NCBI GenBank assembly: GCA_947642475.1 | Contig: CANRSQ010000003.1 | Location: forward strand, 1 to 52,838 | Direction: 5' to 3' | DNA from: an uncultured Mycoplasmatota bacterium | GTDB lineage: Bacteria; Bacillota_I; Bacilli_A; RF39; UBA660 | DNA: 52,838 nucleotides | Shown: positions 5,678-43,128 of the stretch, one piece after another | Layout: each line of letters starts with the position of its first letter | How positions within the stretch are numbered: the first letter of the stretch is position 1 | Notes under the pieces: model-generated | The model's input: the letters and a program-made list of their open reading frames with translations, nothing else | The model's database searches: none | What the model was told of the DNA's origin: nothing | Position numbers and translations under genes: made by a program

Positions 5678-6706
5678 TTATTCATTATCTATATCTTTTG
5701 TTTCAATCATAAATTTATCAAAATCCGATTCAAATAATTTATCTTGAATAATTCTATATTTTTCAAATTCAGATAATGCTTTTTCAGTTGCAATTTGATG
5801 GGATATTTTACCAGCATCTTTTAATACATCTAAATCGTCGCTTAATAAGAATTTATCTATTCTTGCACTCCAATCTTCCATTGTCATTGGTATGTGTCTT
5901 CTAGCTCTATTTTCGGCTAAATCTAGAAAGGCTGATACAATAAGTTCTAAACTTTTTAGTTCGTCTTTGGATAAATAGTTTTTGGCAATTACAACATCTG
6001 TTTCTAAAATCTTCCCTTTTGGAGAGTTTTTCCAAGATGTTAATCCCATATTTGTTTTATCGGCATCGGCTCTATCATAAATAATTTCCGCAGCAGTCTT
6101 GTGTGAAACAGCATAATTCATTTTATTTTGAACTTTTTTAAAAAATTTAATTGTAGTTGGCGATTTAGAATCATAATCTACACTAGTTGCATAAATATCT
6201 GTAATCTTTTGATAAAATCTTCTTTCTGATAATCTTATTTCTCTAATTTCAGCAAGTAAGGAATCATAATAATCTTCATCGAAGAATGCACCATTTGCCA
6301 TTCTTTTTTTGTCTATTATATAACCTTTTTTAGAAAACTCCTTTAATATATAAGTAGCCCATCTTCTGAATTGTATAGCCCTTTCGGAATTAACTCTATA
6401 CCCAACAGAGATAACAGCATCTAAATTATAATACTTAACATTTCTAGTTACTTCACGATTACCTTCCTTTTGAACTAGTGCAAAATTTGCACTAGTTGCT
6501 TTTTCTTCCAATTCATATTCTTTATAAATGTTTTTTAAATGCTTAGTTATAACAGTTCTATCAACATTATATAACATTGATATAGCATTTTGGGTAAGCC
6601 ATAAGTCCCCATTTTCGAATCTTACTTGAATTCCTTTTTCATGGGTTTGTCTTTCAAAAATCAAAAATTCTGCACTGCTACTTCTAATCATTAAATCTTT
6701 AGTCAT
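5678..6706 (-). CDS. RhuM-family protein
   Basis: Characteristic YYNLDAVISVGYRVNSERAIQFRRWAT block. The ATG at 6706 follows a GAGGTG RBS; the track's GTG start lies inside the RBS. Confidence 0.8.
   Translation of the reverse strand: MTKDLMIRSSSAEFLIFERQTHEKGIQVRFENGDLWLTQNAISMLYNVDRTVITKHLKNIYKEYELEEKATSANFALVQKEGNREVTRNVKYYNLDAVISVGYRVNSERAIQFRRWATYILKEFSKKGYIIDKKRMANGAFFDEDYYDSLLAEIREIRLSERRFYQKITDIYATSVDYDSKSPTTIKFFKKVQNKMNYAVSHKTAAEIIYDRADADKTNMGLTSWKNSPKGKILETDVVIAKNYLSKDELKSLELIVSAFLDLAENRARRHIPMTMEDWSARIDKFLLSDDLDVLKDAGKISHQIATEKALSEFEKYRIIQDKLFESDFDKFMIETKDIDNE
6473..6497. repeat. Perfect intragenic palindrome, 12-bp arms with a 1-nt centre
   Basis: AACTAGTGCAAA-A-TTTGCACTAGTT inside the RhuM CDS. 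It encodes ATSANFALV in frame. Confidence 0.95.
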
Positions 6707-6780
6707 TTTTGACACCTCGCTTTTTAATAAATCACTACTTTTCGCAATATATAAACATTATACTATGCTTTTTGTATAAA

Positions 6781-6807
6781 AATAAAAACTCGAACATAAA
6801 GTTCGAG
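6781..6807 (-). terminator. Terminator downstream of tRNA-Gly
   Basis: On the minus strand, CTCGAAC-loop-GTTCGAG followed by TTTTTATT. Confidence 0.75.
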
Positions 6808-6819
6808 CTTAATAACATC

Positions 6820-6894
6820 TGGAGCAAGTGACCGGAATCGAACCGGCATCCTAGCCTTGGCAAGGCCATATACTAACCGTTGTACTACACCTGC
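6820..6894 (-). tRNA. tRNA-Gly (GCC)
   Basis: 75-nt cloverleaf folded by hand: acceptor GCAGGTG/CACTTGC, anticodon loop TTGCCAA, T-loop GGTTCGATTCC, U73, encoded CCA. Confidence 0.9.
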
Positions 6895-6940
6895 ATAAAA
6901 GAACTTTTTTAGTTCTTTTTAATTATATAATAATTTTATT

Positions 6941-10376: not shown

Positions 10377-10404
10377 ATTAAAAAGAACAACATTTGTTGT
10401 TCTT
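10377..10404 (-). terminator. Rho-independent terminator of the LCP gene
   Basis: AAGAACAAC-loop-GTTGTTCTT followed by TTTTAATTT on the minus strand. Confidence 0.75.
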
Positions 10405-17785: not shown

Positions 17786-18000
17786 ATTAAAAAAAATCAC
17801 ATCCTGTATAAGGACGTGATTTACGTGGTACCACCTTAATTTGTAAGTTATACTTACCTTAAGAGCTATAACGCGCTTACCGATATATCTTTGCATATAC
17901 AGCTACCAAAGTGAATTCGTAAAAGATTATTTGTTAGCTCCCACCTATTCTAACTCTCTTTGAAATAATTACTTTTAGTACTACTCTTTGGTCATGGCTT
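17786..18000 (-). promoter_or_regulatory. T-box riboswitch, Phe specifier (UUC)
   Basis: RNA sense: AGAGAG, GGTGGGAGC distal motif, specifier GAA-UUC-A (UUC = 17913..17915), T-box AAGGTGGTACCACG, terminator AATCACGTCC-loop-GGATGTGATT-T8. Confidence 0.85.
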
Positions 18001-18016
18001 TTAAATGACTAAATCA

Positions 18017-18065: not shown

Positions 18066-19307
18066 TTATACTATGTCACTTTCATCCTCATTGAATTTTT
18101 CTAACAGCTTTTTAAATTTAAACGCATTCATCTTTTCTGAAATCTCAAATTGGAATATTTGATTACTTTCAAAATCATGTTCATAGCATAAATTAATATC
18201 ATCTAATAATGCATATATAATTTTATTACCATGTCTTTCTATAATTATATATCTATCTAATGTTCCAGTTTCAATCATTATATATCCTGGCTTAAAATCT
18301 TTATACATGCAGTTTTTAGGAATAGTTTTATTTTGTGATTTTGTTTTCTTTTCTTTTTTGAGTGTCTTAATTTCTTCCATTTCCTTTTCAAGGGCAGATC
18401 TTACAATTTTAATTTCTGGTGATTTTTTTAATTTATATTCTTCAAACAATGTATAGTAATGTCCCTTTTTTATATTTATTTTATACATTCCTTCTATGTA
18501 CTCATTATCTAAATATACTTTATACACTAGTAATTCATTTTGGTATTCTCCATAAATATAATAGTAATTATTATCAGCAAAAATTAGTTTGCCTCTTTCT
18601 AAGTTATTAGGTTTAATTGTGTATGATTTTTGTGTTTGTGTCATGATATATTTTTGCATATCACTATCTACAAAATTGGAAAGTTCTAATTTACTATTTT
18701 TAGGAATTTCTATTTTTGAGGTGAAATCAAAGGAATATTTTTTATCATTGATTTGTAAAGCTTTTTTCCCTTTTTTTACTTCGGTAACATGTTTTGCATA
18801 GTAAAAATCATTGTCGCTATCATATATATAAGATAATTTTCCTTTATATGTAACTATATCACCTGCATCAATATTAAACTCTAATTTTCTTTGAGGAAAA
18901 TGTTTTACCTTTGTGTATCTTTTATTGATTAGGTATATTGTTTTATATATCGTACTTATATCTTCACTGTTTAACGTTCCTATTTTTCTAATAATTCTAT
19001 TATCATCTAGTTTAATTATTTTTGCGGCATAAACGTATCCATCTTTTATAAAATTATATTTTTCTTTTTCTAATTTCTGTTTGAATAATGGATTTGAATT
19101 GGCACTTTTATTTCCACCACAACATAGGGCATATATTTTTCTTTTTGTTTTTCTAATTATAATATAAGGCCCTTCTCTATGGCCTTTTGGTAATAATTGT
19201 CTTTCCTTTTCATTTTTATATCTTTTTGCCCATACAATATCATTTTGACTTAGGGGTAAATGTTTGTTTTGTATCCAAATATTTTTAATATAATTTAATA
19301 ATTTCAT
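18066..19307 (-). CDS. MazF/PemK-like N-terminal domain fused to a repeat-containing C-terminal region
   Basis: NDIVWAKRY...KGHREGPYIII and DDNRIIRKIGTLNSEDISTI resemble MazF blocks (GDLIWV, GHRPAVVL, kiG.ls.e). Three further GDIV/YIY-type units follow. The ATG at 19307 follows an AAGGGGG RBS. Confidence 0.5.
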   Translation of the reverse strand: MKLLNYIKNIWIQNKHLPLSQNDIVWAKRYKNEKERQLLPKGHREGPYIIIRKTKRKIYALCCGGNKSANSNPLFKQKLEKEKYNFIKDGYVYAAKIIKLDDNRIIRKIGTLNSEDISTIYKTIYLINKRYTKVKHFPQRKLEFNIDAGDIVTYKGKLSYIYDSDNDFYYAKHVTEVKKGKKALQINDKKYSFDFTSKIEIPKNSKLELSNFVDSDMQKYIMTQTQKSYTIKPNNLERGKLIFADNNYYYIYGEYQNELLVYKVYLDNEYIEGMYKINIKKGHYYTLFEEYKLKKSPEIKIVRSALEKEMEEIKTLKKEKKTKSQNKTIPKNCMYKDFKPGYIMIETGTLDRYIIIERHGNKIIYALLDDINLCYEHDFESNQIFQFEISEKMNAFKFKKLLEKFNEDESDIV

Positions 19308-19343
19308 AAATACCCCCTTTACTTCACAATTCACTTCTTTTTG

Positions 19344-19368
19344 AACTAATAAGAATTTCTTATTAGTT
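19344..19368. repeat. Perfect 25-nt palindrome (12-bp arms, 1-nt centre) in the 5' UTR, operator candidate
   Basis: AACTAATAAGAA-T-TTCTTATTAGTT lies between the promoter (19417..19446) and the RBS of the MazF-like gene. No T-run follows on the sense strand. Confidence 0.9.
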
Positions 19369-19416
19369 GGATCTTTTGTTAATTCTTTATCTTTATTAAT
19401 ATTGTGTATTAAAACA

Positions 19417-19446
19417 ATTATAACAAGTGTGAGATATGATAGTCAA
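19417..19446 (-). promoter_or_regulatory. Promoter of the MazF-like gene
   Basis: TTGACT - 18 nt - TATAAT with TG extended -10 (minus strand). Confidence 0.55.
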
Positions 19447-19490
19447 TGTTTTTATAACTTTTGGTTAATTAAAAATATACCGTTACATGT

Positions 19491-19520
19491 AAAAACCACT
19501 TAAGCTTATAACTTAAGTGG
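19491..19520 (-). terminator. Rho-independent terminator
   Basis: CCACTTAAG-loop-CTTAAGTGG followed by T5 on the minus strand, after the 94-aa ORF. Confidence 0.75.
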
Positions 19521-19535
19521 CCCTTTCTATATTAA

Positions 19536-19820
19536 TTAAGCTGCTTTTTGCATAGACATATCTTGTTTATATGTATGTGCGTTTTGTATTTCTTCTATTT
19601 CCATTTTTGCAATTTCTATATTTTTAACATCAATTGTATTCCTAGTGTTTTCTGGGTAGTAGTTTTCGTTTAAACAAAAATATTCTGGATTTTTAGCTGC
19701 TGCACTTGGATATAGCTGTGCATATGTTTTTTGTTTTTCAAAAGGATTTGTTGGTAAACCTCTTTTTCTATTTTCTAGATCATTGTTTAAATCGTCAATA
19801 AATTTTTGTACTTTTTCCAT
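19536..19820 (-). CDS. Hypothetical 94-aa protein
   Basis: The ATG at 19820 follows a GGAGGG RBS that overlaps the end of the upstream gene. No family recognised. Confidence 0.5.
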   Translation of the reverse strand: MEKVQKFIDDLNNDLENRKRGLPTNPFEKQKTYAQLYPSAAAKNPEYFCLNENYYPENTRNTIDVKNIEIAKMEIEEIQNAHTYKQDMSMQKAA

Positions 19821-19821
19821 A

Positions 19822-20355
19822 CTATTTACCCTCCGCTTCAATCATTGCCCTTACTATACTCTTTGAATCATTACCAAAATAAGCGTTATACATGGTATCT
19901 TCACCAATGGCTTTGCTTATTAAGTTAGTCATAATAATTTCATCTGTGAAGAAGTTGTTTTCAACGTCACCTACTAAGTTATTTGTGATTATTTCAGTAT
20001 AGCCTTCATTAAGTGCGACTAAAGTGTTTTCTTCATTATTAAATCCATAGTAATTATCTTTGGCTGTAATCATTCCTAAAAGGCAGTGCATAAGCCAGTG
20101 CTTAGCATCACATTCTTCGAATAATCCTAAATTGATTAAAAGTTCGTTTGTATATGGATTATATTTACATGGAAGTTTTACTAAAAACATACTTTCCCTT
20201 TTTATGATTAGAGTCTTAAGTCGTTCATTAAGATTAGCTAAGTCAATTTCTTTAAAGTTATTGTTAAAGATAGTTATTAGTTCTAATAAGTCATCTTTTA
20301 CTTCCTTTGTAATATTTTCGTTTGCATTAAGCGTAGTCTTAATTGTTTCGATCAT
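19822..20355 (-). CDS. Degenerate paralogue of the 4799..5596 zincin-like protein (metal motif lost)
   Basis: WLMHCLLGMI...ALNEGYTEIIT...AIGEDTMYNAYFGND aligns with LLHETMHMCGG...LEEGIHELKT...ILGKQTMDIIAFLTDD. The ATG at 20355 follows an AGGTGAT RBS. Confidence 0.5.
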   Translation of the reverse strand: MIETIKTTLNANENITKEVKDDLLELITIFNNNFKEIDLANLNERLKTLIIKRESMFLVKLPCKYNPYTNELLINLGLFEECDAKHWLMHCLLGMITAKDNYYGFNNEENTLVALNEGYTEIITNNLVGDVENNFFTDEIIMTNLISKAIGEDTMYNAYFGNDSKSIVRAMIEAEGK

Positions 20356-20527
20356 ATTTCCAATCACCTGCTTTGTATTATATCACATCTACTTTAAAAT
20401 GACAATGTTAATTTTAAATTTGTTTGACACTTTTGGTTTACATTTATCTATTTGACATTGGGTGTGTAAAGCATTTAACGTTTGCTTTAATATGTAAAAT
20501 ATTATATAATTATTAGAGGTGATAACT

Positions 20528-25995: not shown

Positions 25996-26871
25996 TTATT
26001 TTTGTTGTATTAATTTACTTATATTCCCTTGATCCATTTTGTTTATAGCAAAGCATTTTTTACCTAAATCTTTTAGTGACGCTCCAATATGATATAGTTC
26101 AGTGTTATCTAGAATTATAAATCTATCATGAAAGTTATTTACTTTTCTTATTGTTACATTTTCATATTGTAAGTTAAATTTTTCTATATCTAAATTTGAT
26201 TTGATGTTTTTTGTCCATATTTCTACTTTTACATTTTCATTTTTATAAATTAAAATATCTAATATGGTTTTATCTATATAATTATCAATAATTATTATTT
26301 TATCTTTAGCTTTTCTAATAAGATTTATAAGTAAGCTATATGCATCGTATATTTGTCCATCATAAAATAGTTTTTCTTTTAAGTCTGGTTTGTTTTCTAA
26401 TTTATCAAAGATAAGATTGAATTTTTCATCATTTTCTAATAGTTTATATTCTACTTTAGTTAATCTATTAAATACATCAGCATTATGTGAAATAAATTGC
26501 CGCATACATACAAAGGCGTCCATGATATTTATACTAACTTCAACTGACTTAGTTGTTTTTAAAACTGCAGACAGCATTGCAACACCTTGTTCTGTAAAAA
26601 CATAAGGTAAATATTTTGAGTACTTTCCTTGTTTTAGTTCTAAGGTCACAGATTGTGACCTTAGAATTTTTTTATATTCTTCTTTCGTTAATTGAAACCT
26701 GAATCTTTCTGGGAATCTTTCTATATTTCTGTTAACAGCTTGATTAAACGCTTTTGTTCCACTCTTATATCCATATAACTTAGCTAAATCAGAATCTAAC
26801 ATAACTTGTTTCCCTCTTATTTCATATATCATGTCTTTTATTTCTTTTTCTTTAATAACTATTTCTGCCAT
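25996..26871 (-). CDS. ORF6N (KilA-N-related) domain protein with PLD-like C-terminal motif
   Basis: IRGKQVMLDSDLAKLYGYKSGTKAFNQAVNRNIERFPERFRFQLTKEE is a typical ORF6N block. C-terminal HDRFIILDNTELYHIGAS resembles HxK(x)4D...GS with K replaced by R. Confidence 0.75.
   Translation of the reverse strand: MAEIVIKEKEIKDMIYEIRGKQVMLDSDLAKLYGYKSGTKAFNQAVNRNIERFPERFRFQLTKEEYKKILRSQSVTLELKQGKYSKYLPYVFTEQGVAMLSAVLKTTKSVEVSINIMDAFVCMRQFISHNADVFNRLTKVEYKLLENDEKFNLIFDKLENKPDLKEKLFYDGQIYDAYSLLINLIRKAKDKIIIIDNYIDKTILDILIYKNENVKVEIWTKNIKSNLDIEKFNLQYENVTIRKVNNFHDRFIILDNTELYHIGASLKDLGKKCFAINKMDQGNISKLIQQK
26638..26666. repeat. Perfect intragenic inverted repeat, 13-bp arms with a 3-nt spacer
   Basis: TTCTAAGGTCACA-gat-TGTGACCTTAGAA inside the ORF6N CDS. 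It encodes ILRSQSVTLE in frame. Confidence 0.95.
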
Positions 26872-26961: not shown

Positions 26962-26981
26962 AACTGCATTTTTTGTGCAGT
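26955..26981 (-). terminator. Rho-independent terminator of clpC
   Basis: ACTGCAC-loop-TGCAGT followed by T8 on the minus strand, directly after the stop. Confidence 0.8.
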
Positions 26982-29273
26982 TTATACAGTTTGGCCTATT
27001 TCTTTGATGTCGATTTCGGTTTTATTATCTATTAGGGCTTCAATAATTAATGTTTCTAATTCATCTTTGATGATTTTACTTACTTTTCTAGCACCATATT
27101 CTTCGTAGTTTGTTTCTTTTATTAGTTTATTTATTACTGATTGTTCTATTTTAATATCGATTTTGTTTTTGTATTTTTCTTTTAAATCTTTTAATTTGAT
27201 ATTTATTATTTTTGTAATATCATCTTCATTTAAATTATTAAAAGCAATTACACTATCTACTCTATTCATAAATGGTATTGAAAATTTATCATTTAATTTT
27301 GTTTTTACTTTATTATCGCTATTAAATCCTACATTAATATCGTGGAAGCCTACATTAGATGTCATGATTATTACAACGTTATCAAATCTTACTATATTGG
27401 ATTTACTATCTTTTATTTTTCCTTCATCTAAAACTTGTAAGAAAAGGTTTATGATGTCATTATGGGCTTTTTCTATTTCATCTAGTATTAGAACTGAGTA
27501 TGGTTTATTTTTTATTTGTTCTAGAATGTTGGTATTATCATCATAGCCGATGTATCCTGGAGGGGCCCCGACTATTTTACTAATACTATGGGCTTCTTTA
27601 TATTCGCTCATGTCTAGTCTAATTACGTTTTTCTTGCCGACTAGATTTTCGCCAAAGACTTTAGCAAGTTCTGTTTTTCCTACCCCTGAAGGACCACAAA
27701 ATAAACATGAATAACATTTATCATTTAAACCTAGTTTTATTTTTTTGGCAATATTGGAAACTTTTTTGACGGCTTCATCTTGCCCGATAAGTTTTTCTTT
27801 GATGATTTTTTCTGTTTGTTTAATTATTGTTTTCTTTTCGTTTAGTAATTCATAAATTGGGATTCCTGTTTTACTATTAACGACATTGGCAACATCTATT
27901 TTTGTTACTTTTTTTGGTTTCTTTTTATAAAGTGTTAGTTCTAGGTTATTTATTTCATTCATTAATTTGAATTCTTCATTTTTATATTCTGAGGCTTTTA
28001 TAAAGTCGTTATTTATTATGGCTTCTTTTTTTTTAGTTATTATATCTTTTAGTTTTTTATTATATTCTTTATATTTACTCATGTTTTTACTTTCTTTTAG
28101 ACTTGCTTTGGCGCATACTTCATCTAGGATATCTATTGATTTATCTGGCTGGTTACGATTATAGATATATTTTTCTGATAGTTCAATGATTAAATCAATT
28201 ATGCCTTCTTCGATGGTGACATTGTGATAGGACTGATATATATCTTTTAAATTTATTAAAATATCTTTTGTTTGATCTTTGGTTGGAGCTTCGATGGTGA
28301 CTTTTTGAAATCTTCTTTCTAAAGCGGTATCTTTGGCAATATATTTTTTATACTCATCGGTTGTTGTGGCACCTATACATCTTAGTTTGCCTCTGGCTAG
28401 GGCTGGTTTAAAGATATTGGATGCATCTATAGCTCCTTCGGCGCCACCGGCTCCTACTAGGGTATGAACTTCATCGATAAAGAGTATTAAATCATCATTT
28501 TCTTCTATTTCTTTTAGAATTTTTTGCATTCTTTCTTCAAATTCACCACGGTATTTGGTTCCGGCTACGCATGCTCCCATATCTAGTCCAATGATTCTTT
28601 TATTTTTTAGAGCGATTGGGACGTCACCATTTATTATCATTCTAGCTAGTTCTTCGACAATGGCGGTTTTTCCTACTCCGGCTTCACCGATTAATAATGG
28701 GTTGTTTTTTGTTCTTCGTGATAAAATTTCTAGAACTCTTTTTATTTCTGGTTCTCTTCCGGTTACGGGATCTAAATTACCGTTTAGGGCTTTTTTATTT
28801 AGATCAACACCTAGTTCTTCTAGCAGAAGTTTTTTGTTTCCTTTTTTGTTTGTTAATTTATAGGTAAATTCGTTATATAGGTCGTCTATGTCGATATTCA
28901 TTCCTATTAATATCCTTATAGCTACGCCTTCTCCTTCTTCTAGGAGACTAGAAAATAGATGATTTATTGTTACGGTTCCATTATTATTTTCTTTGGCGTC
29001 TAAACTGGCGTTTTCAATTATTCTTTTTAGAAGTGGTGTATAAAGGAAGAATTCAGATGACTTGGTTCCTTTTCCAATGGTTTTGATTATTTCGCTTTTA
29101 AATGTTTTATAGTCTAGTTCGTATTCTTTTAATCTTTGGGCTATTTCGTTATCTCCTTTTAGAATTGCGAGTAAAAGGTGTTCTGAGGATACGTAGGGAT
29201 GATTTAGATTTATCATTTCGCTTTTAGCTACTATTAATACTTTTCTGGCTTCTTCTTCAAAACTATTAAACAT
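26982..29273 (-). CDS. clpC: Clp/Hsp100 ATPase, ClpC-like
   Basis: Clp_N repeats at the N-terminus. Two Walker A motifs (GEAGVGKT, GPSGVGKT). 763 aa. Confidence 0.85.
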   Translation of the reverse strand: MFNSFEEEARKVLIVAKSEMINLNHPYVSSEHLLLAILKGDNEIAQRLKEYELDYKTFKSEIIKTIGKGTKSSEFFLYTPLLKRIIENASLDAKENNNGTVTINHLFSSLLEEGEGVAIRILIGMNIDIDDLYNEFTYKLTNKKGNKKLLLEELGVDLNKKALNGNLDPVTGREPEIKRVLEILSRRTKNNPLLIGEAGVGKTAIVEELARMIINGDVPIALKNKRIIGLDMGACVAGTKYRGEFEERMQKILKEIEENDDLILFIDEVHTLVGAGGAEGAIDASNIFKPALARGKLRCIGATTTDEYKKYIAKDTALERRFQKVTIEAPTKDQTKDILINLKDIYQSYHNVTIEEGIIDLIIELSEKYIYNRNQPDKSIDILDEVCAKASLKESKNMSKYKEYNKKLKDIITKKKEAIINNDFIKASEYKNEEFKLMNEINNLELTLYKKKPKKVTKIDVANVVNSKTGIPIYELLNEKKTIIKQTEKIIKEKLIGQDEAVKKVSNIAKKIKLGLNDKCYSCLFCGPSGVGKTELAKVFGENLVGKKNVIRLDMSEYKEAHSISKIVGAPPGYIGYDDNTNILEQIKNKPYSVLILDEIEKAHNDIINLFLQVLDEGKIKDSKSNIVRFDNVVIIMTSNVGFHDINVGFNSDNKVKTKLNDKFSIPFMNRVDSVIAFNNLNEDDITKIINIKLKDLKEKYKNKIDIKIEQSVINKLIKETNYEEYGARKVSKIIKDELETLIIEALIDNKTEIDIKEIGQTV

Positions 29274-35939: not shown

Positions 35940-36875
35940 ATGAATGAATTTCCATATTCTAATACTAATAAAAGATATCATACTTTAGATTATTTTTATA
36001 AGAATAAATTTAATTCTAAGGTTAGCAAGATAAGTTTAAATGCTGGTTTTTCTTGTCCTAATATGGATGGCTCTATCGGAACTGGCGGCTGTATTTACTG
36101 TTCTAAAACTGGGAGTGGTGAGTATGCTGGGAATATAAAAGATGATTTAATTAAACAGTTTAATGATGTTAAAAAAGTAATGGATAGAAAATGGCCTAAT
36201 TGTAAATATATTGGTTATTTTCAAGCACGTACTAATACTTATGCTCCGGTTAGTGTTTTAAAGGAAAAGTATGAAACTATTTTAAATTTAGATAATGTTG
36301 TTGGTTTATCCATTTCTACTAGACCTGATGCGATTAGTGATGAATGTTTAGAATATTTAGCTGAACTCAACAAGAGGACTTTTTTAACTGTGGAGCTTGG
36401 TTTACAAACTATTCATGAGGAGACTACTAAATTAATTAACAGGTGTCATGATTTAAAATGTTTTGATGATATGGTTAAGAAGTTACATTCTAAAAACATT
36501 TTTGTGGTAGCGCACATTATAAATGGTTTACCTTATGAAACTAAGGAAATGATGGTCCAGACGGCTAAACATTTAAATGAGATTGGTGTTGATGGAATAA
36601 AGATTCATATGCTTAGCATTTTGAAAAATACAGCATTGGAAAAAATGTATGTGGAAAAGCCTTTTCATATTTTAACTAAGGATGAATATGTTGATATTGT
36701 ATGTGATCAATTGGAATGTTTAGATCCTAAGATTGTTATTCAAAGATTAACTGGTGATCCAATGGTTAGTGATTTGGTCTGCCCTGATTGGTTAATTAAA
36801 AAAGTACAAATTTTAAATGATATTGATAAGGAAATGGTTAGAAGAGATTCTTATCAAGGAAAAAATGTAGATTAG
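35940..36875 (+). CDS. TIGR01212-family radical SAM protein
   Basis: FSCPNMDGSIGTGGCIYCS cluster and overall YtqA-like layout. Confidence 0.8.
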   Translation: MNEFPYSNTNKRYHTLDYFYKNKFNSKVSKISLNAGFSCPNMDGSIGTGGCIYCSKTGSGEYAGNIKDDLIKQFNDVKKVMDRKWPNCKYIGYFQARTNTYAPVSVLKEKYETILNLDNVVGLSISTRPDAISDECLEYLAELNKRTFLTVELGLQTIHEETTKLINRCHDLKCFDDMVKKLHSKNIFVVAHIINGLPYETKEMMVQTAKHLNEIGVDGIKIHMLSILKNTALEKMYVEKPFHILTKDEYVDIVCDQLECLDPKIVIQRLTGDPMVSDLVCPDWLIKKVQILNDIDKEMVRRDSYQGKNVD

Positions 36876-36892
36876 TTTTATCTACATTTTTT
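36864..36892 (+). terminator. Rho-independent terminator (includes the stop codon)
   Basis: AATGTAGAT-loop-ATCTACATT followed by T4. Confidence 0.75.
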
Positions 36893-37004: not shown

Positions 37005-37907
37005 TTACAAAGTTTTTTCTAATTCATAAGTAGTCACAAAAATATCATTAGGGTTAATATATTTAAAGACATATTTATCGTTTTCTTTCGCACATATAAT
37101 ACCGATTGTTTTATCGTTAAATGGTTCTTTTATATGTTTATCTACATATCCCATATATTTTTTTATTTGTCCAATATGTTCAGCTTTAAATGATGTCACT
37201 TTAAGTTCTAGTACTACATAGCAATTAAATTTAACGTTGTATAGTAAAAAATCTATGTAATGATGGTTGTTACCTATTTTAATTTTTACCTCATGATCTA
37301 CATATGTAAAGCCTATACCTAATTGTTTTAAAAAATTACTCATATCTTCCAAAATAGCATTATGTATAAATAGTTCATTTATTTTATCTGGAATTTTTTT
37401 AGCATTTATAATTACAGGTTCTTTTATTAAGGTGGTTACTTTGGGGTTATCTAATTCACTTTTATATCCTATTCTTTCGTATTCTTTAGATTTGATTCTT
37501 TCTCTAAGTTCACGTACCGATAAATTTTGAGATTTAATTATGGAAATATAATAATTTTTAGCATTTTCATCTTTTATTGATAAAATTTTATATACATGAC
37601 TCCATGTAAGACCTTCCAAAAGGTGGGACACCGTCCCACCTTTTGGAAATGTTAAATAAAACTGACGCATCCTCTTTAAATTAGAAACATCATATCCCTT
37701 TCCAAGTTCTTTTGTTAATCTCTCAGAATATTCTTTAATGAGTTTGTTGCCATATTTTGCGCGACCTTCCCCACCTTGAGCCTCTATAAGTAATCTTCCT
37801 ACTTCATAATAACTATTTAAATCACTTTTATTTTTAGAATAATCCTTTGCTTTTTTATACATTTCATTTTTTATTAATGTATCTTTTATTTTGTTATAGT
37901 AATTCAT
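37005..37907 (-). CDS. YhcG/DUF1016 PDDEXK-family nuclease-like protein
   Basis: N-terminal SYYEVGRLLIE...NLKRMRQFYLTFP...LTWSH and C-terminal YIDFLLYN...YVVLELKV (PD-(D/E)xK-like) blocks. Confidence 0.8.
   Translation of the reverse strand: MNYYNKIKDTLIKNEMYKKAKDYSKNKSDLNSYYEVGRLLIEAQGGEGRAKYGNKLIKEYSERLTKELGKGYDVSNLKRMRQFYLTFPKGGTVSHLLEGLTWSHVYKILSIKDENAKNYYISIIKSQNLSVRELRERIKSKEYERIGYKSELDNPKVTTLIKEPVIINAKKIPDKINELFIHNAILEDMSNFLKQLGIGFTYVDHEVKIKIGNNHHYIDFLLYNVKFNCYVVLELKVTSFKAEHIGQIKKYMGYVDKHIKEPFNDKTIGIICAKENDKYVFKYINPNDIFVTTYELEKTL
37614..37648. repeat. Perfect intragenic inverted repeat, 16-bp arms with a 3-nt spacer
   Basis: TTCCAAAAGGTGGGAC-acc-GTCCCACCTTTTGGAA inside the YhcG CDS. 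It encodes FPKGGTVSHLLE in frame. GC-rich core in an AT-rich genome. Confidence 0.95.
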
Positions 37908-38061: not shown

Positions 38062-38751
38062 TTAATTATTACGTTTGTATTTTATTAATACCTTTAGATG
38101 TCTGATGCTATCTCTAATTGGTCTTAGATGTGGTTTTCTTGCTTTCTTTCCTTTGGAAAGTGTGATTGGTATTTCTTTTATTTTATAGTTTTGTTTATAA
38201 CACAATATTATCATTTCACTAGCAAATTCCATACCAGATGATTGTAGGTTTAGTTTTAATATTCTTTCTTTGTTTATGCCTCTTAGTCCACAGTGGAAAT
38301 CGTTTACTCCACATGGATATAGTTTTTTCCCGATATAACTTAAAATGGGATTACCTATATATTTATTTAATAATGGCATGGCTCCTTTTTCAATACCGCC
38401 TTTAAATCTATTACCAATTACTAAATCATTTCCTTCTTCAAGGTATTTATAAAATTGATTTAAATTTAGAAAGTCATATGTATCATCACTATCACCCATG
38501 ATTATATATTTTCCTTTTGCTTTTTTTATACCTTCTAATAATGCGTTTCCATAGCCTTTTTCTTTTACATTAATTACTCTTGCTTTATTTTCTTTAGCAA
38601 TTTTTATTGAATCATCGGTACTTCCGTTATCGGCTATTAACACTTCTCCATCTATGTTATTTATTTTTAGAAATGTTTGGGCTTTTACGATGCATGATTC
38701 TAGGCTTTCTGCTTCGTTTAAACATGGCATTAATATTGTTAATTTCTTCAT
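38062..38751 (-). CDS. Glycosyltransferase family 2 (soluble, 229 aa)
   Basis: TILMPCLNEAESL...ADNGSTDDS...IIMGDSDDTYD (DxD). No C-terminal TM. Confidence 0.8.
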   Translation of the reverse strand: MKKLTILMPCLNEAESLESCIVKAQTFLKINNIDGEVLIADNGSTDDSIKIAKENKARVINVKEKGYGNALLEGIKKAKGKYIIMGDSDDTYDFLNLNQFYKYLEEGNDLVIGNRFKGGIEKGAMPLLNKYIGNPILSYIGKKLYPCGVNDFHCGLRGINKERILKLNLQSSGMEFASEMIILCYKQNYKIKEIPITLSKGKKARKPHLRPIRDSIRHLKVLIKYKRNN

Positions 38752-38830: not shown

Positions 38831-38860
38831 AAGAAAAATCCAAAGAATTAATCTTTGGAT
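38831..38860 (-). terminator. Rho-independent terminator of the HerA-like gene
   Basis: ATCCAAAGA-loop-TCTTTGGAT followed by TTTTCTT on the minus strand. Confidence 0.8.
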
Positions 38861-40632
38861 TATTTTCTATCTATGAACCAGTTTGTACTTATGTCACAAC
38901 TACTACTTGATGGTGGTGGGGTTGGTTTATCTAGTTTTACTAAAACTGGTACTTTAAATGCATTACCAAAGGCTATACAATTACCTGGTTGAAGTACTCT
39001 TAATCTTTTTACGATTTCGTTTGTAATATTTGGTACCATTTCTCTAATATATGTAATGTCTCTTGGATGTAACATTTTGAATATTAAGAAATTATTACAT
39101 TGTGAAATTGATGTTTCTGATAGATCCGATGGTCTTTGTGAGATTAGGCCTAGTAAAACTCCGTATTTTCTTCCTTCTTTGGTTATTCGATCAAAGATGT
39201 TATAACCTAAAAGATTTACATCGTTATCGTTTTGAACGTATCTATGGGCTTCTTCTAGAATAATGTGGAATGGCAATGATGCTCTTTTATCTAGATTTTT
39301 AGCATAGTCGAATAATAGTCTTGAATATATTTTTGTTATTGTTTTAGCAAATCTATCGTCAACATAATTTATGTTGAAATTGATTATTTGGGCTTTTCTA
39401 CCGTTACCTACTAATAATAGATTTTTGATGTAGTCATCGATACTGATATATTCTTTATAGTCAAAATATACTGCATAATCACTATTTAATAAAGTATGTA
39501 ATCTTACTTTTAATACATTGGCTTCATCATATACTCTTTCGCTATTTAATGATCCTTCTGATATTAATGCGAAGTCTAAGGCTAATTTAAGGTCGTTTAA
39601 CCCGTATTTAAATGAACCATCTGGCATCGTAAGCTCAATATTATCATCTAAGAATGATTGCATGAATTTTGTGATTAATTCCATTTCTCTTATTTTACCG
39701 CTGGCATCTATTATTAGGCATTGTTTTAATGTTCTAACATACCCTGGTTGATATATTTGCGAGTCTAGATTTAAATCTTTGGTATTATAATTTGATAATA
39801 CTGAGAATATTTGGTCTCTTATGGTTGAGGCTGGTTTACCACTTGATAGGATATCTAATATTGCTCTGGCGATGATATCGTTTTTTTGTTTGATTACTTC
39901 TGATTCTTCTCTAGCAAAGACGTTAACTAGTTTTAATGCTTTTTCGATAATTGGAAGTTGTGTTGGTTTTTCGGCGTTTAATAGTAACGCGATATCGTCG
40001 ATATTAAGTAACCATAGTGGTATTTTTAGTGTTTCTGAATCACTGAAGTTTGTATTTGTTGTATAGGCTTTAAATGATACTTCTGGTGCGATTTGGTTTA
40101 TATCTTTAAAGGCTGCATGATATTCGCCGTATGCATCGAAGATGAAAATACTAGCTCTATAAGCAACAGTTGTTTTTTTATCAAAAATACTTTGAATTAA
40201 ATGAGCTACTCCCCATGATTTTCCTGAACCTGTTGATCCAAAAATGGCAAAGTGATTTGAGAAAAATTCATTAATGTTAAATCCTATTTTAACGTCTTCG
40301 TATATTGGACTTGTCCCGATATATAAATCTTTATTTTCTTTATAATCATCGACACTTATTATCATTGGTATTTTTTCTTTTGATATAAGTTTTACGGATG
40401 CTCCAAATGATGGTTTTCTAATGACACCAAAAATAAATTTATTATTTATGATTTCTCCTAATAAATTTACATATGCGATTCCGTCTTTGATATTGGCAAT
40501 CTCACCGACTATGATTTTATTGTCATCTTCCATTACAACGTGTAAATTGACTAAGTTTTGAAATTCTTTTAATTCAATATTTAATCTAACTAGAACTGTA
40601 TCTTCTTCTAGCCCCATTATTACTCCTAACAT
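38860..40632 (-). CDS. HerA/DUF87-type ATPase (HAS-barrel + FtsK/HerA-like P-loop)
   Basis: N-terminal barrel-like region, Walker A IFGSTGSGKSW, Walker B FHIILEEAHRY, arginine-finger region LISQRPSD. Confidence 0.75.
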   Translation of the reverse strand: MLGVIMGLEEDTVLVRLNIELKEFQNLVNLHVVMEDDNKIIVGEIANIKDGIAYVNLLGEIINNKFIFGVIRKPSFGASVKLISKEKIPMIISVDDYKENKDLYIGTSPIYEDVKIGFNINEFFSNHFAIFGSTGSGKSWGVAHLIQSIFDKKTTVAYRASIFIFDAYGEYHAAFKDINQIAPEVSFKAYTTNTNFSDSETLKIPLWLLNIDDIALLLNAEKPTQLPIIEKALKLVNVFAREESEVIKQKNDIIARAILDILSSGKPASTIRDQIFSVLSNYNTKDLNLDSQIYQPGYVRTLKQCLIIDASGKIREMELITKFMQSFLDDNIELTMPDGSFKYGLNDLKLALDFALISEGSLNSERVYDEANVLKVRLHTLLNSDYAVYFDYKEYISIDDYIKNLLLVGNGRKAQIINFNINYVDDRFAKTITKIYSRLLFDYAKNLDKRASLPFHIILEEAHRYVQNDNDVNLLGYNIFDRITKEGRKYGVLLGLISQRPSDLSETSISQCNNFLIFKMLHPRDITYIREMVPNITNEIVKRLRVLQPGNCIAFGNAFKVPVLVKLDKPTPPPSSSSCDISTNWFIDRK

Positions 40633-40677
40633 GTTATCACCCTATTATAATGTTATCACAAAGGTGGCTTTTATGTA

Positions 40678-40711
40678 AAGAAAAAGTGTTAGATTATTGA
40701 ATTTCTAACAC
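40678..40711 (-). terminator. Rho-independent terminator of yqeH (overlaps its 3' end)
   Basis: GTGTTAGA-loop-TCTAACAC followed by TTTTTCTTT on the minus strand. Confidence 0.75.
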
Positions 40712-41666
40712 TGACTTTGACACCATCTTTTATGTATAATTTTATTTTACAGTCTTTGGTTGATTTGATAAAACCTAGGCCTTTTATGACTATATCTTGA
40801 TTTTCTTTTACATTTAAATTATGGCGTTTTAAGTCTTCTAATTTATTTGTCTGTTTATAGAATCTTTCTAATTTTAGATCATTTGATGTATAAAATATTA
40901 GATTTGTTCCTTTGGTTACATCTATTCTAAATAGATTTCCAACAATTATTGTTTGGTCTATTTTTACTTGGATAACGGCTGGTTTTAATTCTTTTTTTGG
41001 TAATATTTTATTTAATATTTCACCTTTAACATCTAAGATAATGCTTCCTTCATCTAGTAATCCTGGAGTATCTATTATGGTTAAATCTTTATTTATTTTT
41101 ACATCAATTAAATCTAAGGTTGTTGATGGTAAAATACTGGTTGTGATTTCTGTTTGGTTTTGTCCATAATCTTTAATTAGTTTATTTATTAGTGTACTTT
41201 TACCGGCGTTTGTATAACCTATAACGTATACGTTATTTGACTTTTTATATTTATTTATTTTTTCATATAGTGTGTCTAGGTTATAGTTATTTTTACTGCA
41301 AACGACTACTTTGTCTATTACATTTAGATTGGTTTTTATTTTGTTTAATAATTTGTTTTCGTCTAAATTTCTTGGAATTAAATCTCTTTTGGCAAGTACT
41401 AGTAAAACGGGATTTTTAATTTTTAATTCGTTTAAACTTTCGGTATTTAGAAAATCGGTAACTAATATTACTAGGTCGTTTGTTTTTTCTATTTGTTTGA
41501 TAATGTTTAAATAATATTCATTATCTTTATCGATAAATTTATAATCGTTATAATGTCTTATTCTAAAACATCTTTCGCATAGATTTTTGGTTAGGTCTTT
41601 TACGTACCCTTCTTTATTTTTATCTTCGTTTTGTAAAACGGCTCCGCAGCCTATACATTTAGTCAT
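40689..41666 (-). CDS. yqeH: Ribosome biogenesis GTPase YqeH
   Basis: N-terminal zinc finger CIGCG...CERCF. Circularly permuted G motifs LAKRDL, GYTNAGKST, DTPG. Confidence 0.85.
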   Translation of the reverse strand: MTKCIGCGAVLQNEDKNKEGYVKDLTKNLCERCFRIRHYNDYKFIDKDNEYYLNIIKQIEKTNDLVILVTDFLNTESLNELKIKNPVLLVLAKRDLIPRNLDENKLLNKIKTNLNVIDKVVVCSKNNYNLDTLYEKINKYKKSNNVYVIGYTNAGKSTLINKLIKDYGQNQTEITTSILPSTTLDLIDVKINKDLTIIDTPGLLDEGSIILDVKGEILNKILPKKELKPAVIQVKIDQTIIVGNLFRIDVTKGTNLIFYTSNDLKLERFYKQTNKLEDLKRHNLNVKENQDIVIKGLGFIKSTKDCKIKLYIKDGVKVSVRNSII

Positions 41667-42180
41667 AATATCTTCCTTTACAGAATAGGTCTTTGTTTCT
41701 TAATTTTTTCATTTTCTTTATTTCTAAGTAGCGGAAGATTTTTCCGGTGAAATAATTTTTATTTGAGCATGGGTTTACTAATATTGTCGTGATGCCGACT
41801 GTGTTACCGCATAAAACATCTGTATACATTTGATCACCAATGTTGGCGATTTCATTTAATTTGTATCCAGAGTTATTAATGAATTTTTTTAGTTTACAAG
41901 TAAATGGCTTAAGAGCGAAAGAAATAAAGTCAACATTTAGGGCTTCGGCAAATCTTTTTACTCTTTTTTTAGGACTATTTGAGAAAATCACAACTTTGAA
42001 TCCTTTTTGTTTTAGGCTGACAATTAGTTCTTTTGCTTTTTCTGTTAAGTCATTTGTTTTGGCTGGAACTAGTGTATTATCTAGATCAAATAAAATACAT
42101 TTTATGCCTCTACTTAGTAATTTTGAGTAATCGATTGTATATATACTTTTTTGGTAGATATCTGGTATAAATTTTTCCAT
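41659..42180 (-). CDS. yqeG: YqeG-family HAD IIIA phosphatase
   Basis: ILFDLDNTL motif. 8-nt overlap with yqeH. The ATG at 42180 follows a GGAGGGA RBS. Confidence 0.8.
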   Translation of the reverse strand: MEKFIPDIYQKSIYTIDYSKLLSRGIKCILFDLDNTLVPAKTNDLTEKAKELIVSLKQKGFKVVIFSNSPKKRVKRFAEALNVDFISFALKPFTCKLKKFINNSGYKLNEIANIGDQMYTDVLCGNTVGITTILVNPCSNKNYFTGKIFRYLEIKKMKKLRNKDLFCKGRYYD

Positions 42181-42251
42181 AAGGTATCCCTCCATAACTA
42201 TTTATATAATAACATAATTGTTATGTGATGGGCAACTATTTTGCTTTATAC

Positions 42252-42285
42252 AAAAGAAAAAACTTGATTATTTGGTATCAAGTTT
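42252..42285 (-). terminator. Rho-independent terminator of the Bro-N gene (overlaps its 3' end)
   Basis: AACTTGAT-loop-ATCAAGTT followed by TTTTTCTTTT on the minus strand. Confidence 0.75.
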
Positions 42286-43128
42286 ATTATTTTTTTCTAA
42301 ATATCTTCCGCCTATATTATTTTCTATTTTTATAGCTTTCTGTTTTGTTTCTTGTTCATAATAATCTTTCGCTATTTTGGATATTGTGCCTCCCCTTTTA
42401 GCTACATTTAAATTTTCTTTTAATCCCGTTGGTTTTTCCTTTTTGGCAATGTCTCTTGTTGTTAGTTCTCCTAAATCAGCTAGTACTAGTTCTATATCGC
42501 TCATATTATCTCTAAGTGATTCTTTTCTAATTCCTTTTAACTGTTTATATTCTTTTGCGGTCATATTAGACCAGGTTTTATAAATTTCATTTGTTAGCAT
42601 GGCATATTCATAGTTTTCGGTTATGCCACCTTCTTTCCAAATGTCTGTAAGTTTTTTTCTATTTAGAATTCCATTAACTCGTGATTTGATCCAATCGTCT
42701 GAATAACCTTTGTTACGATAGTATTCTATGGCTCTATTTATGGCTATTTCTGGGTCAAATACTTCGTCGATTCTTTCTTTTCCTAAAGTAGCCAACCACA
42801 TTTTAAATGGTTCGGCTTTTGGACTTGGCACTGATTCGATTAAACGAAGTATTCCTTCTGTATCTAGGGTGTCGGTCGGATAGTTCTTTCCATCCTTTTG
42901 TGATTGCATTTTTAGTTTCCGACATTTTGTCGGAATCTCACTTTTTTCTTGTTTTGTTAATCGCCTCTTTAACGTCGTCCAATAGTCACTTGGGTCATCA
43001 CTTTCTGTTAAAACAGCTATAACGTCGACAACTGATAAATAGTAATCTTCCTTGTCTGCGTCCCATATACTTCTGATTTTATTTCCTTCAAATAAGTCAG
43101 TAATTGTTTGTAGTTTGTTTTCCTTCAT
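42268..43128 (-). CDS. Bro-N domain protein, DinD-like
   Basis: FEGNKIRSIWDADKEDYYLSVVDVIAVL (Bro-N). The C-terminus LRDNMSDIELVLADLGE...AKRGGTISK resembles the DNA-damage-inducible protein D type. Confidence 0.75.
   Translation of the reverse strand: MKENKLQTITDLFEGNKIRSIWDADKEDYYLSVVDVIAVLTESDDPSDYWTTLKRRLTKQEKSEIPTKCRKLKMQSQKDGKNYPTDTLDTEGILRLIESVPSPKAEPFKMWLATLGKERIDEVFDPEIAINRAIEYYRNKGYSDDWIKSRVNGILNRKKLTDIWKEGGITENYEYAMLTNEIYKTWSNMTAKEYKQLKGIRKESLRDNMSDIELVLADLGELTTRDIAKKEKPTGLKENLNVAKRGGTISKIAKDYYEQETKQKAIKIENNIGGRYLEKNNKLDTK
42917..42935. repeat. Perfect intragenic inverted repeat, 8-bp arms with a 3-nt spacer
   Basis: TTCCGACA-ttt-TGTCGGAA inside the Bro-N CDS (IPTKCRK). Short enough to arise by chance on its own. 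Confidence 0.8.

Follow-up and report, generated by a model that had tools for sequence, protein, structure and literature searches.

Why should genes for candidate defence proteins carry perfect inverted repeats within their coding sequences? The window, by which we mean the whole 52,838-nt stretch of DNA analysed here, contains four genes with such a repeat, all classed by PADLOC as single-gene defence candidates, and a further copy lies in a gene remnant. The features are as follows (palindromes are given without strand):

5678..6706, minus strand: RhuM-family gene (Pfam PF13310, E 3.8e-107; PADLOC PDC-S05)
6473..6497: RhuM palindrome, arms 12+1+12, encodes TSANFALV
6820..6894, minus strand: tRNA-Gly(GCC) flanking the RhuM slot (ARAGORN; Rfam)
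18066..19307, minus strand: gene for 413 aa, SD AAAGGGGG, ATG at 19307
19320..19424, minus strand: RhuM gene remnant (only aa ~52-86; tblastn and frame-2 translation HNINKDKELTKDPTNKKFLLVQKEVNCEV)
19344..19368: RhuM-type palindrome of the remnant, arms 12+1+12, perfect though non-coding
19417..19446, minus strand: promoter-like TTGACT-N18-TATAAT upstream of the remnant, 11/12 matches, TG extension
25996..26871, minus strand: ORF6N-domain gene (Pfam PF10543, E 2e-31; PADLOC PDC-S05, PDLC04869, E 3.8e-113)
26638..26666: ORF6N palindrome, arms 13+3+13, encodes ILRSQSVTLE
37005..37907, minus strand: DUF1016/YhcG PD-(D/E)XK nuclease gene (Pfam PF17761 and PF06250; PADLOC PDC-S02)
37614..37648: YhcG palindrome, arms 16+3+16, encodes FPKGGTVSHLLE
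42268..43128, minus strand: Bro-N-domain gene (Pfam PF02498, E 2.8e-9; PADLOC PDC-S13, PDLC04920, E 1.2e-108)
42917..42935: Bro-N palindrome, arms 8+3+8

All five palindrome coordinates given by the initial annotation were correct, the coding repeats are in frame, and Pfam confirmed the four families it had named. The YhcG gene matched DUF1016_N (E 3.7e-32) and YhcG_C (E 2.3e-33), and the C-terminus of the ORF6N gene gave a weak PLD-like match (Pfam PLDc_2, 0.009). The palindrome centres lie at CDS nucleotides 222 (RhuM), 220 (ORF6N), 277 (YhcG) and 203 (Bro-N), a similar distance from the start codon that results from the fixed place of each repeat in the N-terminal domain. The window contains 4 perfect palindromes with arms of at least 12 bp and a gap of at most 4, compared to a mean of 0.05 per shuffle in 100 dinucleotide-preserving shuffles; three are in the RhuM, ORF6N and YhcG genes and one in the RhuM remnant, and no other CDS of the window has arms of this length. 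The inverted repeat at 36860-36892 is that of a terminator closing a gene. Repeats with 8-bp arms were at chance level (5 in the window versus 7.1 expected from the shuffles), so that the claim of an excess over chance holds for the long arms but not for the Bro-N repeat, which is not significant in the window alone. It is rescued by its homologues, since it is a short version of a family-wide palindrome with arms of 11-14 bp. The YhcG palindrome is a longer version of a 9+1+9 core of its family. The two geometries described earlier hold in the window. The AACTA..TAGTT ends are a trait of the RhuM family, while TTCY..RGAA ends are not a family trait, and palindromes of the YhcG family mostly have a 1-nt centre.

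A terminator-like hairpin directly upstream was called for RhuM (6786-6810), ORF6N (26961-26983) and Bro-N (43259-43277), but none for YhcG; gltX and tRNA-Gly are located immediately upstream of the RhuM gene. No integrase, transposase or R-M domain was detected in the scanned ORFs of the window (five ORFs at the 3′ end, 48208-52785, lay outside the scan). To call the genes singly inserted is roughly right within the window, but the slots are old; a related MAG has YhcG and ORF6N in matching slots, with alleles far more divergent than the flanking genes. In the syntenic slot of L013 the YhcG allele is 65% identical to that of the window, and L123 shares the 1142-nt RhuM unit (5621-6762) at 92% in the same tRNA-Gly slot.

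In RhuM, ORF6N, YhcG and Bro-N and in a fifth, DinD-like family, a palindrome recurs at the matching codon position in homologues from many phyla, among them those of archaea, of phages and of E. coli K-12 (yhcG, dinD). The YhcG palindrome is fixed in position in 115 unique copies (97 distinct palindromes), and that of RhuM across phyla, archaea included. Palindrome density was 0.258 per kb in ORFs of these families versus 0.018 per kb in other ORFs (897 kb in total). Covariation of the arms, a check proposed by the initial annotation, is present in every family. Paired positions amounted to 94.9% in RhuM (52 sequences; score 0.766 versus 0.251 shuffled), 95.6% in YhcG (51 sequences; 0.779 versus 0.183) and 92.9% in Bro-N (27 sequences; 0.707 versus 0.204), while slid partners scored at most 0.18 in these three families; ORF6N homologues from bacteria and viral contigs have differing but complementary arms at one motif. 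As the arms differ between homologues and paralogues and yet stay complementary, the encoded residues change in pairs. These data support the view that the palindrome constrains the protein sequence and not the reverse, and that it is neither chance nor a by-product of the protein. Constraint at the nucleic acid level, as originally suggested, is thus borne out, whereas shared control of unrelated genes is not supported, the repeat sequences being family-specific and even paralogue-specific. In the literature searched we found no prior description of a family-wide coding palindrome.

The constraint looks to act on two-fold symmetry of the DNA and not on a single RNA strand. The 207 distinct palindromes comprise 2197 Watson-Crick pairs, 15 G·T, 19 A·C and 36 transversion-type mismatches; G·T is no commoner than A·C, and a 3:1 ratio is excluded. 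In YhcG the symmetry reaches the centre, to A27 and T29, which are unable to pair in a hairpin, and 48/51 copies retain the synonymous A27, though this base is only 1 nt from its partner. The centre codon is NTG in 48/51 copies, while the window uses TTG/CTG for only 7% of Leu and GTG for 5% of Val; pairing is therefore kept at the cost of codon preference. The YhcG stem has a GC content of 0.56-0.70 versus 0.22-0.25 in the flanks, and in all families the centre is AT-richer than the arms.

As a tentative explanation, we propose that the palindrome may be a gene-internal DNA cis element, capable of forming a hairpin or cruciform, that moves together with the N-terminal module. The inverted repeat would act as DNA, able to extrude hairpins or a cruciform, and would be recognised by its shape together with conserved bases at foot and centre. 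The likeliest reader would be the N-terminal domain that the palindrome partly encodes, a putative DNA binder; for Bro-N and ORF6N such binding is predicted in the literature. Binding or extrusion within the transcribed region could throttle expression of a toxic effector, and such a self-contained brake would accompany the N-terminal module whatever its landing site or fused effector. The modules are indeed joined to different effectors (PADLOC PDLC04879, PDC-S23, PDC-S04), and palindromes of the RhuM type are also present in leaders of other genes, which likewise speaks for portability. Arm-to-arm templated repair would help to keep the arms identical, and rearrangements at the palindrome would be a by-product of DNA structure. 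The cruciform, hairpin target and operator options of the initial annotation fit better than an mRNA site. Among known elements, lambda ori within gene O and the pT181 origin hairpin within repC, the replication origins of initiator genes, are likewise partly palindromic or hairpin DNA in a permissive CDS linker that travels with the gene; unlike there, nothing suggests replication here, and protein binding is putative. Several points count against a cis element. A total length of 19-35 bp is about the shortest that can extrude as a cruciform in vivo, and near-perfect symmetry is unusual among protein operators. The same core TTCCAAAATGGAA occurs in RhuM and ORF6N, read in different frames, which argues against protein-specific sites. 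The conserved bases at foot and centre lie where conserved residues are encoded and are for this reason not assignable to DNA recognition, and roughly one in two viral ORF6N genes no longer has the repeat.

Doubtful, but to be taken seriously as the main alternative, is a 'selfish' palindrome that maintains itself, serves no dedicated function and is merely tolerated by the protein. It would have arisen in a permissive protein segment, been perfected by strand switching on a hairpin or fork template (quasi-palindrome correction), and would drift via paired changes, grow and duplicate. According to the model of Ripley (E. coli thyA, T4 rII), imperfect inverted repeats are reportedly perfected by copying between arms. 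Such template switching accounts for the Watson-Crick arms, without wobble bias, for the paired changes and for arm extension; in the YhcG 'HLFEN/HLLEG' subfamily, to which the window copy belongs, the right flank is extended in frame by 9 nt that match the left flank as its reverse complement. Tandem units (1-3 among E. coli yhcG alleles, 2 in L084) and the location in the least conserved segment of YhcG (aa identity 0.37) are also in agreement with this reading. Moreover, perfect palindromes persist in RhuM remnants with stop codons, which is more simply explained by self-maintenance than by cis-element function. Template switching is a mutational process, however, and leaves unexplained that five families diverged beyond recognition retain the palindrome at one fixed position in 80-90%, and that GC-rich arms persist in 29%-GC genomes. 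A palindrome once lost should not come back, and under neutral maintenance it should therefore have disappeared by now. The 14-fold lower palindrome density of other ORFs also speaks against it, as does the 25-mer at 19344..19368, which is identical in the L240 remnant while the flanks are only ~70% identical.

Palindrome sites were shown to be hot spots of unit duplication, arm extension, gene truncation and IS insertion. This could point to a dedicated recombination or insertion point, whose hairpin would be cut and resealed, either by host repair or by a recombinase or transposase acting in trans, permitting the swapping of downstream sequence and diversifying these genes; we consider this unlikely. 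N-terminal RhuM remnants stop 10-13 nt past the palindrome in 5/7 cases, ORF6N homology in L103 begins at the palindrome, and an internal ORF6N deletion in L106 begins directly after it. Two E. coli lineages have yhcG cut at the palindrome edge, one beside a transposase remnant and the other beside an IS1 end, and the divergence of slot alleles relative to their flanks would fit as well. Any palindrome is expected to be fragile, however, and no recombinase was consistently linked to the palindrome genes. The module-shuffling junctions are at about aa 125-140, away from the palindrome, and synonymous-site identity showed no excess on either side of the YhcG palindrome and thus no gene-conversion boundary. 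Integron attC sites, REP/RAYT hairpins and IS200/IS605 ends are recognised as folded DNA with strand breakage at a fixed distance; they are extragenic or at cassette ends and have a dedicated enzyme. attC sites are longer, spanning 57-141 nt with extrahelical bases, and REPs are multi-copy and identical. Our palindromes resemble them in variable sequence with kept complementarity and few conserved foot or loop bases, but lie within genes, each with a sequence of its own, and neither an integrase nor a HUH gene was found nearby.

An mRNA hairpin on the sense strand that reduces or gates expression, be it as a site for RNase III or another nuclease, as a ribosome pause or, as in AbiD1, as the target of an activator triggered by phage, is improbable. 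The predicted folds are stable (-11.7 to -31.3 kcal/mol, z -3.6 to -5.7), with -15.3 kcal/mol (z -3.6) for RhuM, -18.2 kcal/mol (z -5.2) for ORF6N and -31.3 kcal/mol (z -5.7) for YhcG. The lack of a sense-strand U-tract after the hairpin (0/127 in RhuM, ORF6N and Bro-N) is expected of a transcribed, non-terminating hairpin. RhuM-type palindromes also recur in 5′ leaders: the remnant in the window sits in the leader of the 413-aa gene, which had no match in Pfam, NCBIfam or PADLOC, and further leaders were found in L256 and L258. Against this stand the equal tolerance of G·U and A·C, the symmetry at A27/T29, the occurrence in archaea as well as bacteria and the absence of any Rfam match to the hairpins. 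The mRNA processing or attenuation site first considered is hence disfavoured, there being no G·U tolerance, strand bias or sense U-tract. The abortive-infection gene AbiD1 is controlled in translation by mRNA structure near the gene start; it is likewise a single-gene defence toxin silenced by structure in its own transcript, silencing being a proposal here, but the signature in our genes is at the DNA level and 200-280 nt into the CDS.

Even less probable is an intrinsic terminator that stops antisense or convergent transcription entering the 5′ part of the gene, formed by the hairpin and a T-run opposite upstream Lys/Glu codons. The RhuM, ORF6N and Bro-N hairpins scored as terminator-like only on the plus strand, antisense to the genes, and an antisense T-run follows 71/92 YhcG, 29/63 RhuM, 14/43 Bro-N and 7/21 ORF6N hairpins. 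T-runs are expected opposite A-rich coding strands, by chance in roughly 20-30% by our estimate. The GC-rich hairpins are similar in size to Rho-independent terminators, and many AT-rich copies have the antisense T-run; they differ in lacking a sense U-tract and wobble pairs, and GC-rich RhuM homologues keep the palindrome without the T-run. A·C, which equals antisense G·U, is not enriched, and archaeal termination is not known to rely on hairpins.

An origin by chance or as a mere consequence of a conserved peptide motif, suggested by the Bro-N repeat taken alone and by the conserved peptides LRSQIVTS and ATxxKFxxVQ, is for practical purposes refuted by the covariation counts, and is also opposed by the excess of long palindromes, by pairing that fixes third-codon positions and rare codons, and by L279, which retains the peptide LRSQIATS without the palindrome.

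Perfect inverted repeats of up to 284 bp in functional CDSs are known from mitochondrial housekeeping genes of a few animals, the Nematomorpha, where the arms encode conserved residues (PMC6649704). As there, both arms are translated here, and protein function and strict secondary structure are kept together; unlike there, our palindromes comprise 19-41 bp at one fixed position per family, belong to accessory genes of prokaryotes and phages, and encode the least conserved residues.

The window has a G+C content of 29% and comes from a small-genome lineage of uncultured Bacilli, with relatives among MAG chromosomes of 1.3–1.5 Mb and 'Firmicutes bacterium CAG:822'. The identities that the initial annotation had given to four genes were confirmed by Pfam, and PADLOC assigned all four to its single-gene 'phage defence candidates' (S05, S05, S02 and S13):

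5678-6706, minus strand: RhuM; Virulence_RhuM PF13310, 357.7 bits versus a cut-off of 33.7; PADLOC PDC-S05, PDLC04851, E 1.5e-146
25996-26871, minus strand: ORF6N; PF10543, 108.6 bits versus 27.8; PADLOC PDC-S05, PDLC04869, E 3.8e-113
37005-37907, minus strand: YhcG; DUF1016_N PF17761, 111.7 bits, and YhcG_C PF06250, 115.7 bits, both over the cut-off; PADLOC PDC-S02, PDLC04807, E 2.2e-71
42268-43128, minus strand: Bro-N; PF02498, 37.9 bits versus 25.6; PADLOC PDC-S13, PDLC04920, E 1.2e-108

As the PDC classes are candidates only, the four genes are candidate anti-phage genes. RhuM, ORF6N, DUF1016/YhcG, Bro-N and DinD-like genes rank with the most frequent unexplained genes carried in defence islands, type I R-M loci and prophages. 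A PDB sequence search returned no relatives for any of the four proteins.

An exhaustive scan recovered every repeat listed in the initial annotation, all of them in frame, and placed the centres of the palindromes at CDS nt 222 (RhuM), 220 (ORF6N), 277 (YhcG) and 203 (Bro-N). Their excess held up against dinucleotide-preserving shuffles: four palindromes with arms of at least 12 bp and a gap of at most 4 nt were observed in the window, versus 0.05 in the shuffled sequences. Arms of 8 bp were at chance level in these shuffles, so the Bro-N repeat alone is not significant. In the fetched loci, palindromes with arms of at least 10 bp reached 0.258 per kb in ORFs of these families versus 0.018 per kb in neighbouring ORFs (897 kb). 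The other long palindromes of the window are accounted for by intergenic A-run/stem/T-run hairpins at 36860-36892, 38837-38861 and 10383-10404, which resemble bidirectional terminators.

For each gene, homologous loci were fetched and the codons aligning with the window palindrome were excised. Among 126 YhcG copies (115 unique), nearly all had a palindrome at the aligned site, with 97 distinct sequences and a usual form of 8-9-bp arms around a 1-nt centre (xCA-N-TGx'), and the encoded residues changed in complementary pairs (GA..SH, GR..CD, VQ..SA, WH..CA, RS..SS). ORF6N homologues behaved in the same way, with the palindrome at the 'LRSQIVTS' motif. RhuM homologues from Bacillota, Bacteroidota, Proteobacteria, other phyla and methanogenic archaea carried it at 'ATxxKFxxVQ', Bro-N homologues at 'SELxTxCxQLKM', and a DinD-like family met in the flanks of the fetched loci had 11-15-bp arms at 'DHFxxVxKM'. 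In E. coli K-12, yhcG contains a run of three units that ends in one with perfect 15-bp arms, and dinD contains one unit with 7-bp arms; the yhcG palindrome lies at 3368204-3368236 of NC_000913.3. The arms covaried in RhuM, YhcG and Bro-N homologues, a test that the initial annotation had proposed, and for every value in the following table the observed count was reached in 0 of 500 shuffles.

Pair counts between the arms of aligned palindromes (shuffled values in brackets; slid controls have the partner positions shifted)
RhuM: paired cells 94.9% (69.6%); both sides changed 174 (47); covariation 0.766 (0.251); slid controls at most 0.17
YhcG: paired cells 95.6% (62.7%); both sides changed 143 (47.5); covariation 0.779 (0.183); slid controls at most 0.18
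Bro-N: paired cells 92.9% (66.9%); both sides changed 81 (23); covariation 0.707 (0.204); slid controls at most 0.11

Viral ORF6N genes were found with a profile query, after a single-sequence scan had come back empty. About half of those on viral contigs kept the palindrome, down to 34% identity, and one encoded the peptide LRSQIATS with the palindrome absent, which shows that the peptide does not force the palindrome. Both chance and protein-level explanations are excluded.

The palindromes sit within N-terminal modules that were found joined to various effectors, with junctions near aa 125–140, away from the palindrome. One PDC-S05 model, PDLC04879, aligns both with RhuM, over its first 125 aa, and with the ORF6N protein, over its last 165 aa, so that the two N-terminal modules are interchangeable on the same PLD-like effector; a PLDc_2 match at the C-terminus of the ORF6N protein stayed under the cut-off (16.2 versus 27). 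Profile-profile comparisons of the N-terminal domains, made from shallow alignments, were not significant (best Bro-N versus RhuM, E 0.009, and ORF6N versus Bro-N, E 0.06; DinD versus the others, E at least 0.15), and we therefore do not claim a common origin of the palindromes. The initial annotation had also considered shared control of the four genes; this we reject because the repeat sequences differ.

In a related MAG, YhcG and ORF6N occupy the same two slots, where the flanking genes are 84–97% identical and the defence genes only 65–67%, and its copies carry palindromes unlike those of the window. Two window genes that each adjoin a defence gene, a MATE-like 398-aa gene (24765-25961) and a 229-aa glycosyltransferase (38062-38751), are missing from the syntenic regions of this closest MAG (L083 and L013); both slots have gained or lost more than one gene. 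The RhuM unit (5621-6762) is common to another MAG at 92%, also downstream of gltX and tRNA-Gly, but there 1.9 kb of different DNA lies between gltX/tRNA-Gly and the unit.

Rearrangements were seen at the repeats themselves. In the YhcG subfamily that includes the window copy, a 9-nt in-frame extension, the reverse complement of the left flank, has lengthened the arms to 16–20 bp. Alleles of E. coli yhcG have one (O157), two or three units, and their sequences also vary among strains. In one E. coli lineage, yhcG breaks off precisely where the large palindrome ends on its 3′ side, beside a transposase remnant, and in a second lineage the left arm adjoins an end of IS1. N-terminal remnants of RhuM stop 10–13 nt past the palindrome in five of seven cases; ORF6N homology starts at the palindrome in locus L103, and a deletion starts just past it in the ORF6N gene of L106. 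The palindrome sites are natural hot spots for truncation and IS insertion. No recombinase was consistently linked to the genes in the flanks of the fetched loci. A role of the YhcG palindrome as a gene-conversion tract boundary was rejected, since codon identity at conserved residues was similar on either side.

The palindrome at 19344-19368, which the initial annotation had placed in a 5′ UTR, belongs to such a RhuM remnant: about 35 RhuM-like codons follow a strong promoter-like site and precede the Shine-Dalgarno sequence of an unknown 413-aa gene. A remnant in an Oscillospiraceae MAG has exactly the same 25-mer, while the flanks are only about 70% alike. In loci L256 and L258, RhuM-type palindromes lie just upstream of the Shine-Dalgarno sequence of a Bro-N gene. 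To test leader conservation, metagenomes were scanned for relatives of this 413-aa protein-coding gene, and none turned up.

These observations bear on the question whether the palindromes are selected or maintain themselves without function through templated repair. Self-maintenance would account for perfect palindromes that persist in pseudogene remnants and for the growth and duplication events, and for these reasons we place it close behind selection. It does not readily explain near-universal retention at one site in five families, the confinement of the trait to these families, arms that stay GC-rich although the genomes are AT-rich, or an identical 25-mer inside diverged flanks, and on these four grounds selection is favoured.

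A strand-specific RNA role is disfavoured. Of the pairs in 207 distinct palindromes, 2197 were Watson-Crick, and the mismatches comprised 15 G·T, 19 A·C and 36 of transversion type; whichever strand is considered, wobble pairing was therefore tolerated no more than A·C, and these counts exclude a 3:1 bias of G·T over A·C, which would be modest for an RNA helix. The centre codon of YhcG was NTG in 48 of 51 copies; in the window, TTG or CTG makes up only 7% of Leu codons and GTG only 5% of Val codons. In the codon before the centre, the synonymous third base was A in 48 of 51 copies (background 49%), at a position one nt from its partner where hairpin pairing is impossible. The G+C content of the YhcG arms was 0.56–0.70 versus 0.22–0.25 in the flanks, and the central 7 nt were AT-richer than the arms in all four families. 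An Rfam scan returned two T-boxes and two tRNAs and matched none of the palindromes, which together with the G·T and A·C counts speaks against a structured RNA element. A sense-strand intrinsic terminator was rejected because none of the 127 RhuM, ORF6N and Bro-N copies and only 12 of 92 YhcG copies had a T-run behind the stem, and none of the four window hairpins was called on the minus strand. As to a possible antisense terminator, a T-run followed the stem on that strand in 33–77% of copies and three window hairpins were called terminator-like there; this T-run derives from Lys/Glu codons and is gone in GC-rich homologues that retain the palindrome. A frameshift stimulator was dismissed, as the A-runs lie outside the reading frame with no spacer before the stem and are absent from the other families.

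The repeats were also compared with known classes of element. Their two-fold symmetry would suit the palindromic operator of a dimeric regulator if a protein binds them, and their perfect arms and short AT-rich centre would suit a cruciform-forming inverted repeat, with a borderline length and a putative extrusion under negative supercoiling. The nearest analogue is the coding palindromes of Nematomorpha mitochondria. Integron attC sites are imperfect palindromes of 57–141 nt with R/L boxes and extrahelical bases, located at the 3′ end of a cassette and accompanied by an integron integrase; the present repeats measure 19–41 nt, have perfect arms and lie mid-CDS, and, as first noted, no integrase was present in the scanned window ORFs, nor did one recur in the flanks, so this identity was rejected. 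A REP/BIME or MITE-like dispersed repeat is contradicted by 97 distinct palindromes among 115 YhcG copies, all intragenic; the E. coli yhcG unit occurs once per genome (median 1, maximum 2). Searching the literature on RhuM, ORF6N, DUF1016 and yhcG with palindrome or hairpin gave no description of the repeats. The closest reports were that DUF1016 and RhuM are enriched beside phase-variable R-M loci (PMC9881135) and that an ncRNA overlaps the yhcG 5′ UTR (PMC7967276); neither is about the repeat.

With chance and protein-level explanations excluded and an RNA role disfavoured, a DNA-level element remains, either selected or self-maintaining. A selected cis element could act as a cruciform or hairpin, or as a binding site with two-fold symmetry. 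Its inferred reader may be the predicted DNA-binding domain that contains the repeat, and the element may serve as a portable brake on a toxic effector. A bolder version, which we regard as improbable, has single-gene abortive-infection modules carry, in the palindromes of their coding DNA, a physical, host-independent switch: within the transcribed region, a cruciform or hairpin of borderline stability, perhaps clamped by the gene's own N-terminal domain, part of which the palindrome encodes, would block expression while the chromosome is intact and supercoiled, and phage attack, DNA breakage or relaxation would change the topology and release expression. If true, this would define a new class of cis-regulatory element for which protein sequence has been sacrificed in at least five families; these occur in bacteria, archaea and phages and include yhcG and dinD of E. 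coli.

Because the DNA element takes precedence over protein sequence, at one fixed site, in all five kinds of gene, it offers a concrete, mutable handle on the control or evolution of these genes, and its presence in yhcG and dinD of E. coli K-12 makes the question directly testable. The Pfam 'conserved motifs' LRSQIVTS, ATxxKFxxVQ and QTxSA are partly shadows of a DNA palindrome, and dN/dS or coevolution analyses of palindrome-encoded segments will mislead.

Several further arrangements were noted in the fetched loci. The K-12 yhcG gene is at 7828-8955 of L272, with strain variants in L274–L277; in many E. coli strains yhcG has gltD and nanQ as its immediate neighbours, and the fimbrial cluster of K-12 is missing. 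One ORF6N gene (L084, 2669-2742) has two successive palindromes (LRSQIATL...LRSQIVTL), a tandem unit duplication as in E. coli yhcG. YhcG paralogues of related small-genome Bacilli form tandem arrays of 3–4 genes about 900 bp apart (L006, L010, L014, L015, L022, L032, L053 and others), and the same 1.3–1.5-Mb genomes also hold scattered copies, with a different palindrome in each paralogue. A large serine recombinase adjoins the Bro-N gene in 13 of 80 loci (e.g., L257, 3587-5257), and those copies therefore probably belong to prophages or integrative elements. In a locus from a Legionella MAG (L167) that has DUF1016 and RhuM genes, there are five intergenic palindromes (2385-2409, 3535-3561, 4730-4756, 4790-4816 and 4896-4920), four of them of the type GGGAGNCA-N-TGNCTCCC with compensatory differences; these could represent a family of REP type, or else terminators that look like the YhcG core.

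Other features of the window include an accessory-type gene at 2757-3692 (plus strand), which has no palindrome and no PADLOC match; its 311-aa product has a match to HMUDK_hel (PF18723, E 2.6e-104), the helical domain of 5-hmdU DNA kinase, which belongs to phage DNA-hypermodification pathways. A small three-gene island (18066-20367, minus strand; 413, 101 and 181 aa) is bordered by the pheST T-box and alr; the RhuM remnant forms the leader of its first gene, and its genes had no Pfam, NCBIfam or PADLOC match. T-box leaders are located on the minus strand at 17807-18004, upstream of pheS, and at 48785-48965, upstream of a 190-aa/585-aa (alaS-like) gene pair.
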